Source: Lacibacter sp.
Lineage (GTDB): Bacteria; Bacteroidota; Bacteroidia; Chitinophagales; Chitinophagaceae
Direction of reading: 5' to 3'
DNA length: 64,000 nt
Assembly (NCBI GenBank): GCA_046297415.1
Contig: JBKBIL010000003.1
Span: forward strand, 193,070-257,069
Part shown: positions 18,763 through 50,505 of the stretch, in pieces
How the letters are laid out: the number at the start of each line of letters is the position of its first letter
Position numbering within the stretch: the first letter of the stretch is position 1
Notes under the pieces: model-generated
The model's input: only the letters and a program-made list of their open reading frames with translations
Databases searched by the model: none
What the model was told of the DNA's origin: nothing
Translations under genes and position numbers: made by a program

Positions 18763-21700
18763 ATGGATCAGAAAATTCGGATTGTAACCGCAGCCAGCCT
18801 CTTCGACGGCCATGATGCTGCCATCAACATCATGCGCCGTATTATGCAAAGCATGGGCGCCGAAATCATCCACCTCGGCCACAACCGCAGCGTAAAAGAA
18901 ATTGTGGAAGCTGCCATTGAAGAAGATGCGCACGGCATTGCCATAACCAGCTACCAGGGCGGACATGTTGAGTTTTTCAAATACATGAAAGACCTGCTGG
19001 ACGAAAATGGCTGTGGCCACATCCGCATTTTCGGCGGCGGCGGCGGTACCATACTTCCGCAGGAAATTGAAGAACTGCATGCGTACGGCATTACCCGCAT
19101 TTACAGCCCCGACGACGGCCGCCACATGGGCCTTGAAGGCATGATTGCCGATGTGCTGGAAAAATGCCGCCCCCACCCGGCCTCCCCCGGAGGGGGAAGG
19201 GATTGGCGGCAGTCTGACTATTGGCAGGCGCCCGAAAAATGGAACGACAAACTTCCTTTGGATGAGAAAAAAGATATTAGACGTATCGCAAGAGCAATAA
19301 CCATAGCTGAATGTGGCTTAATTGGAAATGAATGGGGTTATGATGGTATATCAACGACTGTGAAACATTTCAAGGCCGACCCTTTACTTTATGCAAAACT
19401 GAAAGATTTCGCATTAGTACATCGAGCAGTGCCTACAGTTGCAGAGTCTGTTCTGTGGGACAAGTTGCAGGGCATGAAAGAAGGATACAAATTTCGTCGT
19501 CAGCATGTAATTGGTCAGTTTATTGCTGATTTTGCTTGCCTGAAAAAAGGTTTGATTATTGAAATTGATGGATTGTACCACCAGTTACCGGAAGTGCAAA
19601 TTAAGGATGAAGAACGGACTGAAATATTAAAGCAATTCGGTTTTACAGTTCTTCGATTTACAAATGATGATATCCTGTATCGTATAGAGGAAGTGATTCA
19701 AAAAATTTATCATACGTTACAAGTTCTTCCCGACAAGAGAGAGTTTGAACTAAATAGTGCGGCTGAACAACCCTCCCCCTCCGGGGGAGGTAAGGAGGGG
19801 GCACCCGTCCTTGGCATCACAGGTACCGGCGGTGCCGGTAAATCATCGGTAACCGATGAAATTGTGCGCCGCTATTTGCACAATTTTACCGACAAAACCA
19901 TTGCGGTTATTTCCGTTGATCCCAGCAAAAAGAAGACCGGCGGCGCCCTGCTGGGCGACCGCATTCGCATGAACGCCATAGCCCACCCGCGGGCATACAT
20001 GCGCAGCCTGGCCACCCGCGATGAGAATACCGCCCTGAGCGGCGCCGTGCAGCACGCACTGGATATTTGCCGGGCCGCCGGTTTTGACCTCATCATCCTC
20101 GAAAGCGCCGGCGTAGGCCAAAGCGATGCCTCGATTTTGGATTACTGCGATGTGAGTATGTATGTGATGACGCCCGAATACGGCGCCGCCTCACAGCTCG
20201 AAAAAATTAACATGCTCGATTATGCCGACGTGGTGTGCCTGAATAAGTTCGACAAGGCTGGTGCGTTAGATGCGCTGCAGGAGGTACGCAAGCAATACAA
20301 GCGCAACCACGGCCTGTGGAGCGCCAACGATGAAGAACTGCCCATTGTGGGCACCATGGCCAGTAAGTTTAATGATGAGGGTGTGAACCGTTTGTTTGCA
20401 CTACTGCTGCAGGTTATTGAAAAGAAAACCGGTGTACGCTTCGGCAATTTTTCATTTGCGCAAACAGCTAAGGTTACTCAGGCCATCATTCCCTCCACCC
20501 GTACCCGTTACCTGAGCGAAATTGCCGAAAACAACCGCAGCTACGACCAGTTGGTAAACCAACAAAGCGGCTTTGCCTCCAAGTTGTATCAGTTGCAGGG
20601 TGCGAAAGAAACGCTTACGGCGGCAGGTGCTCCGGCAGCGGCAATTGAACTTATCGACAAGCAGATTCAGTTTTATACCGATCAGCTCACGCCAGTTGCC
20701 CGTAAACTCATCAACAACTGGCCCAATAAGGTGGCTGCGTATCAGCAGGATTATTATGAATACACGGTGCGGGATAAAGTGATACGCCAGCCCATGTTTA
20801 CGCATAGCCTGTCGGGCACCCGCATACCCAAAGTGGTACTGCCCAAATACAAAGACTGGGGCGATTTGCTGCGCTGGCAGGCACAGGAAAACGTACCCGG
20901 CCATTTCCCGTTTACCGCAGGGGTATTTCCGCTGAAGCGGGAAGGAGAAGACCCCACGCGGATGTTTGCCGGCGAAGGTGGACCCGAACGCACCAACAAG
21001 CGGTTTCATTATGTTTCGATGGGGCAGCCGGCCCAGCGCCTTTCCACTGCCTTCGACAGTGTAACCCTGTACGGCGAAGACCCCGATTACCGGCCCGATA
21101 TCTATGGTAAAATAGGCAACAGCGGCGTTAGCATAGCCACGGTAGATGATGCCAAAAAACTATACAGTGGCTTTGACCTGTGCAGTCCGCGTACATCCGT
21201 GTCCATGACCATCAATGGTCCGGCACCCATTATTCTTGCTTTTTTCATGAATGCCGCCATCGACCAGCAGTGCGAAAAATGGATTGTGGCCAACGGGCGT
21301 CAGGATTGGGTGGAAGCCGCTTTGCAACGCAAGTACCCCGACGGCAACCGTCCGGTGTACCACAATCCCGCTTTTCCGGGCGCCTTGCCGGAAGGTAATA
21401 ACGGATTGGGGTTGCTGTTGCTGGGCCTCAGTGGCGATGAGGTGCTGCCTGCCGATGTGTATGCCCAATGCCGTCAGGCCGCGTTGCAGCAGGTACGGGG
21501 TACGGTACAGGCCGATATATTGAAAGAAGACCAGGCCCAAAATACCTGCATCTTCAGCACCGAGTTTGCGCTGAAGCTGATGGGCGATGTGCAGGAGTAT
21601 TTCATTCAGGAAAAAGTGCGGAACTTTTACAGCGTCAGCATCAGCGGCTATCATATTGCCGAAGCGGGCGCCAACCCCATCACCCAGCTGGCCTTTACGT

Positions 21701-22596
21701 TGGCAAACGGATTTACGTATGTAGAGTATTACCTCAGCCGGGGCATGCATATTGACGATTTTGCGCCCAACCTGTCGTTTTTCTTCAGCAACGGCATGGA
21801 TCCGGAATACAGTGTAATTGGCCGGGTGGCACGCCGCATTTGGGCCAAGGCCATGAAGTATAAGTACAAGGCCAATAAGCGGAGCCAGATGCTGAAATAT
21901 CACATTCAAACTTCGGGCCGCTCGCTGCATGCGCAGGAAATTGATTTTAACGATATACGCACTACCTTGCAGGCCCTTTACGCCATTTACGACAATTGCA
22001 ATTCGCTGCATACCAACGCCTACGATGAAGCCATTACCACGCCCACCGAAGAAAGCGTGCGCCGGGCCATGGCCATTCAGCTCATCATCAACCGCGAACT
22101 GGGCTCTGCCAAAACCGAGAATTTCATACAAGGCAGCTTTATCATAGAGGAACTTACCAACTTGGTGGAAGAAGCCGTACTGAAAGAGTTTGATCGCATT
22201 ACCGAAAGAGGTGGGGTGCTGGGTGCCATGGAACGCATGTACCAGCGCAACAAAATACAGGAAGAGAGTTTGCATTATGAACACCTGAAGCATACCGGCG
22301 AATTGCCCATCGTGGGGGTGAATACCTTCCTCAACAAGCAGGGAAGCCCAACCACCATACCCGGAGAGGTGATACGCAGTACCACGGAAGAAAAGGAACA
22401 GCAAATCAGTAACCTGCAGTCGTTTTGGAAACGCAATGCCGGCAAATCGGCCGAAATGTTGCAACGCCTGCGCAATGTTGCCATAAACAACGGTAACCTC
22501 TTTGCGGAGCTGATGGAAACCGTAAAGTATTGCTCGTTGGGGCAAATAACGCATGCCTTGTACGAAGTGGGCGGACAGTACCGGCGGAATATGTAA
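18763..22596 (+). CDS. icmF: Fused isobutyryl-CoA mutase / MeaI GTPase IcmF carrying an in-frame DUF559 endonuclease insertion
   Basis: B12 motif FDGHD, Walker [10 protein letters not shown], mutase domain with PTRMFAGEG (Phe, as in ICM). Extra segment at about aa 136-347. Confidence 0.92.
19169..19802 (+). mobile_element. Inverted-repeat-bounded DUF559 cassette, in frame inside icmF
   Basis: Left repeat 19169-19202 and right repeat 19770-19802 are imperfect reverse complements. Interior encodes [31 protein letters not shown]; hand-counted G+C about 39% versus roughly 55% in sampled flanking lines. Confidence 0.8.
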
Positions 22597-44806: not shown

Positions 44807-45105
44807 ATATCCCCCTCTGGGGGGGACTGAGGGGGAGGATTTACTAGAACCATTTCGTTTGCCTCCCTCCGACGCTAATGGTCGGAGTCCGTGACCCTAC
44901 ACACTCCGACGTTTCAGTCGGAGCTCGAAGCCCTCGGATAGGGGGACAGCCTTCTAAGTTGAACCTTTTGTAAATTATGAACATGCGTTTCATCGGTACA
45001 TTCTCTTGCATGAAATGATGCCTATAGCAAACACGCATCCAGGCCGAACGGAACTATCCCCCTCTGGAGGGGGACTGAGGGGGAGGATTTTTGAAACTGA
45101 TTTTC

Positions 45106-45489
45106 ATGCAAACCTCTGAGCACCATCATTACAATAAGAACCTTCGTCATTATGCTCGCGAACTCCGTGGCAATATGACTAAGGCAGAAGCTGTACTCTG
45201 GAAACATGTTTTAAGGGCAGGTATGATGAAAGGCTACACGTTTAATCGACAGCGACCTGTTTTAAATTTCATTGCTGATTTCATGTGTAAGGACTTAAAA
45301 CTTGTTATAGAAGTTGATGGTATTACACATCATGAGGAAAGCACTGTAATCAGAGATGAATTAAAAGACAAAGCGTTGAAAGCTGCCGGATTTTATGTGA
45401 TGCGTTTCAGTGATAATGAAGTACTGAATGGTTTAGAAGGAGTCAGAAGATCAATTCTTTCATGGATTGAAGAAAATGAAAATGGATAA
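45106..45489 (+). CDS. DUF559 / Vsr-like endonuclease, copy 1
   Basis: YARELRGNMTKAEAVLW, FNRQRPVLNFIADFMC, VIEVDGITH, GFYVMRF. Confidence 0.9.
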   Translation: MQTSEHHHYNKNLRHYARELRGNMTKAEAVLWKHVLRAGMMKGYTFNRQRPVLNFIADFMCKDLKLVIEVDGITHHEESTVIRDELKDKALKAAGFYVMRFSDNEVLNGLEGVRRSILSWIEENENG

Positions 45490-45688
45490 TGTTTTCGTTT
45501 GCCTCCCCCTACACCCCCTCGGATAGGGGGACAGCTTTCTAACCAGCAGCTTTTAAGTGATTAACATGCATTTCATCGGCACATGCTCTTTCACGAAATG
45601 ACACCTAGAGCAAACACGCATTCAGACCGAACAGAACTATCCCCCTCTGGAGGGGGACTGAGGGGGAGGATTTTTGAAACTGATTTTC

Positions 45689-46072
45689 ATGCAAACCTCT
45701 GAGCACCATCATTACAATAAGAACCTTCGTCATTATGCTCGCGAACTCCGTGGCAATATGACTAAGGCAGAAGCTGTACTCTGGAAACATGTTTTAAGGG
45801 CAGGTATGATGAAAGGCTACACGTTTAATCGACAGCGACCTGTTTTAAATTTCATTGCTGATTTCATGTGTAAGGACTTAAAACTTGTTATAGAAGTTGA
45901 TGGTATTACACATCATGAGGAAAGCACTGTAATCAGAGATGAATTAAAAGACAAAGCGTTGAAAGCTGCCGGATTTTATGTGATGCGTTTCAGTGATAAT
46001 GAAGTACTGAATGGTTTAGAAGGAGTCAGAAGATCAATTCTTTCATGGATTGAAGAAAATGAAAATGGATAA
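45689..46072 (+). CDS. DUF559 / Vsr-like endonuclease, copy 2 (identical protein)
   Basis: 583-bp tandem duplication of copy 1. Confidence 0.9.
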   Translation: MQTSEHHHYNKNLRHYARELRGNMTKAEAVLWKHVLRAGMMKGYTFNRQRPVLNFIADFMCKDLKLVIEVDGITHHEESTVIRDELKDKALKAAGFYVMRFSDNEVLNGLEGVRRSILSWIEENENG

Positions 46073-46476
46073 TGTTTTCGTTTGCCTCCCCCTACACCCC
46101 CTCGGATAGGGGGACAGCTTTCTAACCAGCAGCTTTTAAGTGATTAACATGCATTTCATCGGCACATGCTCTTTCACGAAATGACACCTAGAGCAAACAC
46201 GCATTCAGACCGAACGGAACTATCCCCCTTCGGAGGGGGACTGAGGGGGAGGATTTATGGAGGCAGACTCTCACCCATTCCGACAGGATCCGCGAATGAG
46301 AAATCCCATCCAGCCAGCAGATGTGCCACTAAAGAACAAATGACTCCAATCCGTTTCCATAACATGAGATTTCTCACCGGCAGATGCATGGCTATCGCCG
46401 TCCTGCCGTTTCGAAACAACGGTCAACAAAAGCGCACAACACGCAACATCTAACAATAACCTTTCTGCATTCACGC

Positions 46477-49202: not shown

Positions 49203-50505
49203 GTCATTTCGACTCGAAGATCCCGACCGAAAGCGTCGGGACCTGCGGGGGCGAAGCCATTAATTTAGAAGCGTCATTTCGAGGGAGCGGGAGTCGGCCC
49301 AAGCCGGCAGGATCCGCGACTGAGAAATCTCATGAAATGCGCAGGCACCATGTTGCATACCGAAAACAAGTGGTTGTTTCTGTGGCATGAGATTTCTCGT
49401 CGGCAGATACGCTCCTTCGGATCCCTGCCTCCTCGAAATGACGGTTTTAAAGAAACTTCATTTCGATGCTGCGGGGGCGAAGCCGGATCCGCAGCAGAGA
49501 AATCTCACCGGGCCGGCAGATACAGCATTGATTAACAAATGAACGCGTTGTGCTATTAAAAAGTGAAAATAAATTCAGGTTTCAAATCGAGAAAATATTA
49601 TCAGGGCCTAAAAGTTGGGTACTACAGTAGTACTATGGCTTAATCAGGGCTCCCCCCGAGATCGGGGTGTAATCGATCTCGGGTGCCCTTTTTGGGTACC
49701 TTTTTGGGCAAGCAAAAAGGTACAAAACCTTTTTCACTCAAATTTCAAAGATTCCATTCTTTGATTTTGGAAATTCAATAGTACAACGCGTTAACAAATG
49801 ACTAAAAAACCGTTTCCATACTAAAAGATTTCTCACCGGCAGATTCACGGCTACCGCCGTCCTGCCGGTTCGAAATGACGGTCTTAATTAAATAAAGCAA
49901 CGTCATTTCGACCTTGCGGGGGCGCAGCCGGATCCGCAGCAGAGAAATCTCACCGGGCCGGCAGATACAGCATTGATTAACAAATGAACGCGTTGTGCTA
50001 TTAAAAAGTGAAAATAAATTCAGGTTTCAAATCGAGAAAATATTATCAGGGCCTAAAAGTTGGGTACTACAGTAGTACTATGGCTTAATCAGGGCTCCCC
50101 CCGAGATCGGGGTGTAATCGATCTCGGGTGCCCTTTTTGGGTACCTTTTTGGGCAAGCAAAAAGGTACAAAACCTTTTTCACTCAAATTTCAAAGATTCC
50201 ATTCTTTGATTTTGGAAATTCAATAGTACAACGCGTTAACAAATGACTAAAAAACCGTTTCCATACTAAAAGATTTCTCACCGGCAGATTCACGGCTACC
50301 GCCGTCCTGCCGGTTCGAAATGACGGTCTTAATTAAATAAAGCAACGTCATTTCGACCTTGTGGGGGCGCAGCCGGATCCGCAAGGGAGAAATCTCATGA
50401 AATGCGCAAGCACCATCTTGAATAACGAAAACAAGTGCCTGCTTCCATACCAAAAGATTTCTCATGGATGGATCCCCGCTTCGCGGCCCATCCATTCGAA
50501 ATGAC
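49203..50505. repeat. REPIN-like array of GTCATTTCGA...GAGAAATCTC units in inverted pairs, containing a 445-bp tandem duplication
   Basis: Forward/reverse pairs 49273/49442, 49457/49879, 49902/50324, 50347/50505. Period 445 confirmed at three anchors. Confidence 0.88.

Follow-up and report, generated by a model that had tools for sequence, protein, structure and literature searches.

The DUF559 segment of icmF and its inverted repeats

The gene icmF of Lacibacter sp. lies in a stretch of 64,000 nucleotides of contig JBKBIL010000003.1 (positions 193,070 to 257,069), which was analysed as a whole and is called the window here. In this study, we examined the segment 19169-19802 of the window, in which a DUF559 nuclease domain sits inside icmF between GC-rich inverted repeats. 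A first-pass annotation had described icmF as uninterrupted, with a complete DUF559 domain ahead of the Walker A motif of its GTPase, and both descriptions were borne out. A single open reading frame (ORF) of 1277 aa contains PF02310, PF03308, and PF01642, which identifies the product as IcmF, the fused isobutyryl-CoA mutase. According to Pfam, the B12-binding domain occupies aa 6-108, DUF559 (PF04480) aa 213-320, and the MeaB domain aa 347-552, with the MM_CoA_mutase domain downstream. The DUF559 domain lies about 30 residues upstream of the Walker A motif. Its match (nucleotides 19399-19722; E 1.2e-28) scored 99.6 bits against a cut-off of 20.6 and covered profile positions 3-109 of 109, which places it in the family. 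The acidic and His residues that were said to be retained, D62, E73, D75, and H79, are all present in the insert. The features are listed in Table 1.

The nuclease is accompanied by imperfect inverted repeats, as previously described. [quoted passage not shown] When up to two mismatches were allowed, the core motif CCTCCCCCNNNGGGGGAGG occurred in the window only in the two IcmF arms, where 0.02 matches are expected, and two or more matches were obtained in 0 of 100 shuffles. As each arm forms a hairpin by itself, a direct repeat is seen between the two arms as well (82% over 17 nt). Their orientation is genuinely inverted because the loops GGA and TCC are reverse complements. The translations reported earlier for the repeats, 11 and 10 residues with Pro/Gly stretches, were correct. 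GC content is 0.34-0.43 between the arms versus 0.53-0.60 outside, and GC content at third codon positions (GC3) is 0.31 in the nuclease, 0.36 in the helix that precedes it, and 0.62-0.64 in the flanks. The repeats do bracket the nuclease, as had been proposed, but the left repeat is separated from it by this helix, which is native to IcmF.

Table 1. Features of the window discussed in the text (window positions; aa numbers refer to IcmF)
Feature	Position	Strand	Remarks
icmF host gene	18763..22596	+	one ORF, 1277 aa; B12-binding, MeaB-like GTPase, and mutase domains
Left terminal inverted repeat	19169..19200	+	outer C-run GCCCCC (19169-19174), spacer, hairpin TCCCCC-GGA-GGGGGA (19183-19197); reads PHPASPGGG
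Native MeaB N-terminal helix segment within the repeat pair	19201..19344	+	47 codons; from orthologue alignment
Net DUF559 insertion relative to closest insert-free orthologue	19345..19767	+	141 codons, no start or stop
Right terminal inverted repeat	19771..19802	+	hairpin CCTCCCCC-TCC-GGGGGAGG (19772-19790), spacer, outer G-run GGGGGC (19797-19802)
Walker A / P-loop GTGGAGKS of MeaB-like GTPase	aa 354-361, 19822..19845	+	20 nt past the right repeat
Free-standing DUF559 gene, copy 1	45091..45489	+	132 aa, 33% identical to the IcmF insert
DUF559-less unit	45502..45669	+	left-type repeat (CCTCCCCC + hairpin, 45502-45531) and right-type repeat (hairpin + GGGGGAGG, 45640-45669)
Free-standing DUF559 gene, copy 2	45674..46072	+	protein identical to copy 1; part of a 583-bp tandem duplication

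The insert had also been called intein-less. No Hint or intein domain was matched by Pfam in IcmF, and DUF559 fills the 141-aa insert. The junctions (..GYD/GIST.. and ..SAAE/QPSP..) lack the residues of intein junctions (Cys/Ser/Thr, His-Asn, and a following nucleophile), and the repeat ends encode Pro/Gly. Rfam gave no match to a known RNA element or intron at E up to 1. Metatranscriptome contig X7 (18809-19245) extends unbroken from the B12 domain across the left repeat, and contig X6 (19269-20001), which starts in the helix, crosses the right repeat and reaches the GTPase, likewise without a break. A joint that skips the insert was not present in any of the metatranscriptome contigs. These results support the earlier description, with the RNA evidence at the level of contigs.

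A confident nuclease fold was predicted by AlphaFold for aa 208-325 (predicted local distance difference test, pLDDT, 70-90), with low-confidence stretches at aa 138-207 and 327-344. Profile matches were obtained to 3HRL (E 8e-34) and to 3R3P, the catalytic domain of the homing endonuclease I-Bth0305I (E 1e-7). DUF559, Vsr, and 3R3P have been grouped in one clade, and the assignment of the D/E/D/H residues to catalysis is knowledge of this family (PMC3424549). These residues are kept in 81 of 82 copies. Judged from its sequence, the nuclease resident in IcmF is probably active. DUF559 is the sole protein encoded between the repeats, and no transposase of the DDE, HUH, serine, or tyrosine type is present there. 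Likewise, the flanked gene is DUF559 and not the HUH Y1 transposase that is flanked by repetitive extragenic palindromic (REP) sequences in systems of REP and REP-associated tyrosine transposase (RAYT). Homing endonucleases reside in self-splicing elements or are free-standing. The IcmF copy does neither, being fused in frame, while relatives in Prevotella lie between genes.

Recurrence in other host genes and conservation of the repeats

An exhaustive, profile-free search with the 141-aa insert returned 19,973 relatives. The best 150 (45-58% identical) lie mostly within much longer proteins; of the 149 that were retrieved, 69 are longer than 250 aa and 37 have 160 aa or fewer. More than 25 host families were distinguished by Pfam, and in many cases the insertion divides the host domain into two or three parts. 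The hosts include LeuRS, IleRS, MetRS, MnmE, MetH, adenine deaminase, CinA, DegT, RecQ, HsdS, SpoIIE phosphatases, helicases, SpoIID, acetyl-CoA synthetase (ACS), M23 peptidase, a PaaZ-like enzyme, RibD, TGT, glycosyltransferases, sugar epimerases, and IcmF. The suggestion that the nuclease survives in housekeeping enzymes is strongly supported by this range, which includes MetH, MetRS, IleRS, LeuRS, MnmE, TGT, RibD, RecQ, and ACS.

A genomic scan with one genome per species confirmed at least 577 loci, and the locus statistics given here refer to the best 80 of these. They are all from Bacteroidota, plus two from Ignavibacteriota. In 70 of the 80 loci, DUF559 is embedded in a long open frame that continues for hundreds of codons in both directions. 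The host is MetH in 39 loci (at least three different sites), MetRS in 13, and IcmF in eight. The GC3 of the cassette is lower than that of the host in 67 of 70 loci (0.277 versus 0.385, p = 1.5e-12). The 'B12' values of this GC3 comparison were probably calculated in the wrong frame and were set aside. In the DUF559 tree, the Chitinophagaceae copies from MetRS, MetH, adenine deaminase, CinA, and ACS and a free gene intermix, which indicates moves between genes. Phage was considered as the vector and set aside; viral contigs hold distant relatives only, at 50% identity or less. As a separate observation, B12-dependent enzymes (MetH and IcmF) dominate the hosts at loci L005-L084, which may reflect either a sampling bias of the IcmF-derived query or a real preference.

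The association of repeats with DUF559 recurs widely at these loci. The density of GC-rich hairpins over the 80 loci is 3.79 per kb up to 150 nt from the DUF559 ends and 0.167 per kb elsewhere, a 23-fold enrichment. The usual left architecture is aGCCCCCC-taa-[CCCCCC-AAA-GGGGGG], and the usual right architecture, [CCCCCC-TTY-GGGGGG]-tg-GGGGGGCt, is its mirror image. The outer C-run was found in 47 of 62 left ends and the outer G-run in 51 of 62 right ends. In 19 pairs, each loop is the exact reverse complement of the other, and in two pairs the loops are direct; most of the remaining pairs are one base from the inverse. All three reading frames of the hairpins are used (30/12/17 on the left and 23/10/31 on the right). 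These results indicate that the DNA, and not a linker peptide, is conserved. They also agree with the earlier proposal that the Pro/Gly linkers are encoded by the hairpins of the element itself, and these linkers are predicted to be disordered around a well-folded nuclease.

Three alleles of MetRS were compared at one loop. The L166 allele is empty and has no repeat. In L165, a repeat pair surrounds a remnant of 25-30 aa without a nuclease. In L010, the same loop contains a full DUF559 cassette with both repeats. These alleles show that the canonical cassette brings both repeats and that MITE-like decay products exist. The three-allele loop is also a clean natural series in which gain can be set against decay.

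An intergenic cassette of Prevotella has near-perfect repeats of 30 nt and its own ATG and TAA. It fills the short gap between a gene for a 399-aa protein and an ArgC-like gene (L011:2892-3412) and starts 2 nt past the upstream stop. Filling an intergenic gap is an arrangement typical of free-standing homing endonuclease genes.

The insert and its neighbouring helix in IcmF orthologues

IcmF orthologues were searched with the first 600 residues of the protein as the query. About 23 IcmFs of Chitinophagaceae carry DUF559 at the same place at 60-75% identity, and many closer orthologues have no DUF559, among them P0031 (87-89% identical). The closest insert-free orthologue for the comparison of DNA was L001, also from Lacibacter and 87-89% identical. 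Relative to L001, the net insertion stops a few bases short of the right repeat. The 47 codons that follow the left repeat are the native N-terminal helix of the MeaB module and were found in every IcmF. The right repeat alone is present in the IcmF P0034, and neither repeat is present in the IcmF P0038. The idea that the repeats are the plain ends of a block dropped into IcmF was rejected in this form, because the native helix lies inside the pair and both repeats are kept in DUF559-free IcmFs.

We therefore compared the helix with its flanks. Between P0010, which has the insert, and P0023, which does not, the B12 domain is identical at 136 of 140 positions and the GTPase at 227 of 246, whereas the helix is identical at only 11 of 40. 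The helix is identical at 26 of 40 positions between two insert-free IcmFs whose flanks are more distant. Of the 21 insert-bearing IcmFs, 13 have a distinctive helix variant with the residues 'GEW', which none of the 92 insert-free IcmFs has (p = 5e-12). At codons with a conserved amino acid, synonymous change relative to Lacibacter amounts to 68% in the helix and 38% in the flanks (p = 0.002). Base composition was not taken as proof of import, because the insert-free orthologue, too, has a somewhat low GC3 in this segment; composition is therefore weak evidence here, and we relied on the synonymous-change test and the allele linkage. The first-pass annotation had asked whether the insert is fixed among orthologues. 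It is not. In a tree of 113 close IcmFs built from the flanks only, the insert is present in 21 with a patchy distribution, and parsimony requires 12 changes. Taken together, the divergence of the helix, the GEW linkage, GC3, the synonymous excess, and the 12 parsimony changes indicate that the nuclease and the adjacent helix have been exchanged as a unit between IcmF backgrounds, with the repeats as the boundaries. Since the helix moves together with the nuclease, the repeats do mark the limits of the exchanged tract, and the idea of the repeats as ends is partly reinstated.

Several further observations were made on IcmF. In an insert-free gene (L002:2330-2375), a third IcmF site, namely the linker that follows the GTPase, contains an in-frame right-type repeat of about 42 nt (GAGTCTAAAGTCTCCCCC.TGGGGGGAGATTTAGAGGGGGC), and a near-identical copy forms the right end of a DUF559 cassette in a close relative (L003:5975-6020). 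P0004 and P0040 have more Pro/Gly insertions at a fourth site, which lies in their mutase domain. Many IcmF relatives on long contigs (P0033, P0051, P0090, P0094, and P0102) are only about 460-490 aa long and have the B12-binding and GTPase domains but no mutase domain, which suggests that in some Chitinophagaceae the IcmF gene is split or the gene call truncated. P0121 (71% identical) was considered as a free-standing closest relative and was rejected; it is in fact a frameshifted IcmF, L004. The embedded DUF559 of L004 appeared free-standing in the protein database because the gene is broken into short calls. At L004:2365-6239, this insert-bearing IcmF is fragmented into about ten short called genes, and the breakage probably reflects indel errors of a long-read assembly rather than a pseudogene.

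Free DUF559 genes are also present in the window (Table 1). The region 44810-46255 contains a tandemly duplicated unit of 583 bp, which gives two identical DUF559 genes alternating with three repeat-bounded units of about 168 bp that have no nuclease. Similar units flank the free genes; their right-type repeats were located at 44810, 45057, and 46223, and a left-type repeat at 46085. The first-pass annotation had likened these repeats to those of IcmF. The likeness holds for the C5-loop-G5 hairpin with its C-run or G-run, but the polarity is reversed. Within the window, hairpins of this kind occur almost exclusively beside DUF559. A non-coding tandem repeat with a unit of 445 bp (about 2.1 copies, 98% identical) was found at 49448-50400; it has internal palindromes such as GTACCTTTTTGGGCAAGCAAAAAGGTAC and CCCCCCGAGATCGGGG, and its motif GGATCCGC..GAGAAATCTCATG recurs at 46288-46385, adjoining the DUF559 locus.

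A probable homing-like cassette family, its alternatives and its relatives

The cassette consists of one DUF559 gene (a Vsr-like PD-(D/E)xK nuclease) of about 120-140 codons between GC-rich terminal inverted repeats of about 30 nt. It has two lifestyles. It lies between genes with its own start and stop, or, more often, in frame and without stops inside conserved housekeeping genes. We consider it probable that the segment 19169-19802 is the IcmF-resident member of a selfish, homing-like cassette family that is widespread in Bacteroidota and is translated through and left unspliced. Whatever the frame, a C-run encodes Pro and a G-run Gly, and therefore the repeats become flexible linkers. The cassette is tolerated in coding sequence because the frame is kept and the repeats are read in this way; with such linkers, the nuclease could fold in a surface loop of the host as a side domain.

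The comparative data suggest that the cassette is mobile, and from them we infer a substrate for the nuclease and a way of copying. The nuclease may nick or cut at the repeats or at insert-free alleles. Recombinational repair from a copy that bears the cassette would then spread it in a homing-like manner, and in IcmF this repair would replace everything from one repeat to the other. Indirect evidence for homing comes from the patchy presence of the insert, the foreign tract linked to it, and the relatedness to I-Bth0305I. Insertions at ectopic sites would be rare, and only those in frame and in a tolerant loop would persist.

Several observations weigh against this interpretation. The left repeat does not adjoin the nuclease in IcmF, and DUF559-free IcmFs keep both repeats around native sequence; L001, for example, retains them as CGCCCCCCCGGAGGGGGAGG and ACCCCCTCCGGGGGAGGTTTGGAAGGGGCC. 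A simple cassette model leaves the native sequence within the IcmF repeat pair unaccounted for. No target-site duplication was evident at the MetRS junctions when empty and full alleles were compared. Near-identical cassettes in different host genes were not found, the maximum being 78% nucleotide identity, and the jumps from gene to gene may therefore be ancient. The free DUF559 genes of the window lie outside the repeat-bounded units, with a polarity reversed relative to the in-frame cassettes. This favours a variant of the model that makes the repeats partly independent of the nuclease, in the manner of REP and RAYT. The helix GC3 of the insert-free orthologue is lowish too (0.52 versus 0.65-0.72). 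The trees of IcmF flanks and of DUF559 were built by neighbour-joining without support values, and the metatranscriptome contigs may include DNA carry-over and drop rare spliced forms.

An alternative is that there are two separate elements. In that case, the palindromes would be independent in-frame repeats, scattered through the linkers of coding genes and comparable to REP sequences or to Rickettsia palindromic elements (RPEs), DUF559 would mobilise them in trans or use them as targets for inserting itself, much as RAYTs relate to REPs, and the IcmF repeats would not be the nuclease's own ends. DUF559-free IcmFs with both repeats around native sequence agree with this, as do the IcmFs with neither repeat (P0038) or the right one only (P0034), the solo right-type repeats at other in-frame IcmF sites (that at L002:2347 hardly differs from the right repeat of L003), and the free DUF559 genes at 45 kb and at L055, which stand between repeat-bounded units without DUF559. 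However, the empty MetRS allele has no repeat and the full allele gains both together with the nuclease, mirror-image pairs tightly bracket DUF559 in most of the 80 loci, hairpins are 23-fold rarer away from DUF559, and no solo copy lies away from DUF559 in the 64-kb window. We therefore regard two separate elements as unlikely. A domesticated or adaptive module, serving DNA tethering, regulation, or repair coupling and inherited vertically with repeated loss, would fit the catalytic residues conserved in 81 of 82 copies, the occupation of the same sites across families and even in Ignavibacteriota, and the lack of recent copies common to different host genes. It is difficult to reconcile with more than 25 functionally unrelated hosts whose catalytic domains are split by insertions, with repeats that are conserved as DNA in three frames and also surround intergenic copies, and with the finding that the cassette exceeds its host in AT content in 67 of 70 loci. 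The IcmF insert is moreover polyphyletic and linked to a foreign helix allele, and MetRS has repeat-only decay products. Domestication is accordingly given a low probability.

Removal of the insert from the protein or the mRNA, as an intein or intron, would match the occupation of conserved housekeeping genes, as by inteins, and the outer C-run and G-run could pair in RNA. Against this stand the 141-aa insert filled by DUF559 with no Hint or intein domain, junctions without Cys/Ser/Thr and His-Asn, the lack of an intron match in Rfam, the frame that is open through both ends in 70 of 80 loci, and the RNA contigs that cross both junctions with no insert-skipping joint. A spliced element is thus very improbable. 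An assembly chimera or other artefact might be suspected from the metagenome-like data and the sharp GC shift inside the insert, but dozens of assemblies made independently show the same architecture, some of them from isolates such as Niastella sp. OAS944, and it is present in several DNA and RNA runs as well, and we give this explanation hardly any credence.

With the homing-like cassette as the preferred reading, its wider meaning can be considered. To our knowledge, selfish nuclease genes inside essential genes persist only by splicing out, as introns or inteins do, or by lying between genes, and DUF559 is a large family without a known role. If the cassette spreads as proposed, it represents a third route, in which the element stays in the protein, tethered by linkers from its own inverted repeats. 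This would account for many puzzling 'DUF559 fusion' architectures in annotations of Bacteroidota and give DUF559 a testable function. It would also provide natural maps of insertion-tolerant sites in MetH, MetRS, LeuRS, IleRS, and IcmF and a new system for studying how mobile DNA builds multidomain proteins. A bolder claim, to which we give a little less than even weight, is that the cassette is a new class of autonomous mobile element, in which a Vsr-like nuclease gene with hairpin inverted repeats colonises essential genes in frame. The repeats would serve as both recombination or cleavage substrate and linker code, and the host enzyme would carry the nuclease as a side domain. This would be a third solution beside introns and inteins, one that has spread in Bacteroidota through MetH, several aminoacyl-tRNA synthetases, IcmF, and more than 20 other families. 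No description of such DUF559 cassettes was found in the literature covered, which did not extend to subscription journals.

The cassette was finally compared with known systems. The closest in enzyme type are Vsr-like (EDxHD) homing endonucleases, namely I-Bth0305I (PMC3239194) and the 'fractured genes' family (PMC2677866). They share with the cassette the nuclease clade (PMC3424549), selfish genes in conserved housekeeping genes, a patchy distribution, and the co-transfer of flanking sequence. However, enzymes of the I-Bth0305I type are carried by group I introns or inteins or sit in split-intein gaps, so that the product either loses them or is encoded apart from them, whereas the IcmF nuclease is translated within the host protein and bracketed by hairpin inverted repeats. 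Inteins with homing endonuclease domains are similar in that they lie in frame at conserved sites of essential enzymes, occur sporadically, and carry a nuclease. The cassette differs from them in having no Hint domain or splice residues, in staying in the mature protein, and in having terminal inverted repeats at the DNA level.

Elements that are translated in frame were also considered. RPEs and other in-frame MITEs are palindromic DNA inserted in frame in unrelated metabolic genes and translated there (PMC10969869). The cassette resembles them as translated, in-frame inverted-repeat DNA, and its DUF559-less derivatives (MetRS L165; window 45502-45669) are MITE-like. RPEs occur in Rickettsia only and are non-autonomous elements without an enzyme gene, whereas the cassette carries a nuclease gene and short C-run/G-run hairpins. 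ShiLan-type elements in phage methylases of actinophages are non-spliced, homing-like insertions with an HNH nuclease in another frame (PMC11855218). Like the cassette, they leave the host frame open and are neither intein nor intron, but the cassette has a PD-(D/E)xK nuclease in the host's own frame, lies in bacterial chromosomes, and has inverted repeats.

The REP/RAYT (REPIN) system has GC-rich palindromes and one small nuclease-type gene flanked by them, an arrangement that the free DUF559 genes at 45 kb match. RAYTs, however, belong to the HUH tyrosine transposases (IS200/IS605 type), and REPs occur outside genes in very large numbers. In contrast, the enzyme of the cassette is Vsr-like, and its repeats are few and lie mostly inside genes. 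The cassette looks like a variation on these known kinds of element, and there is a substantial chance that it deserves a class of its own.

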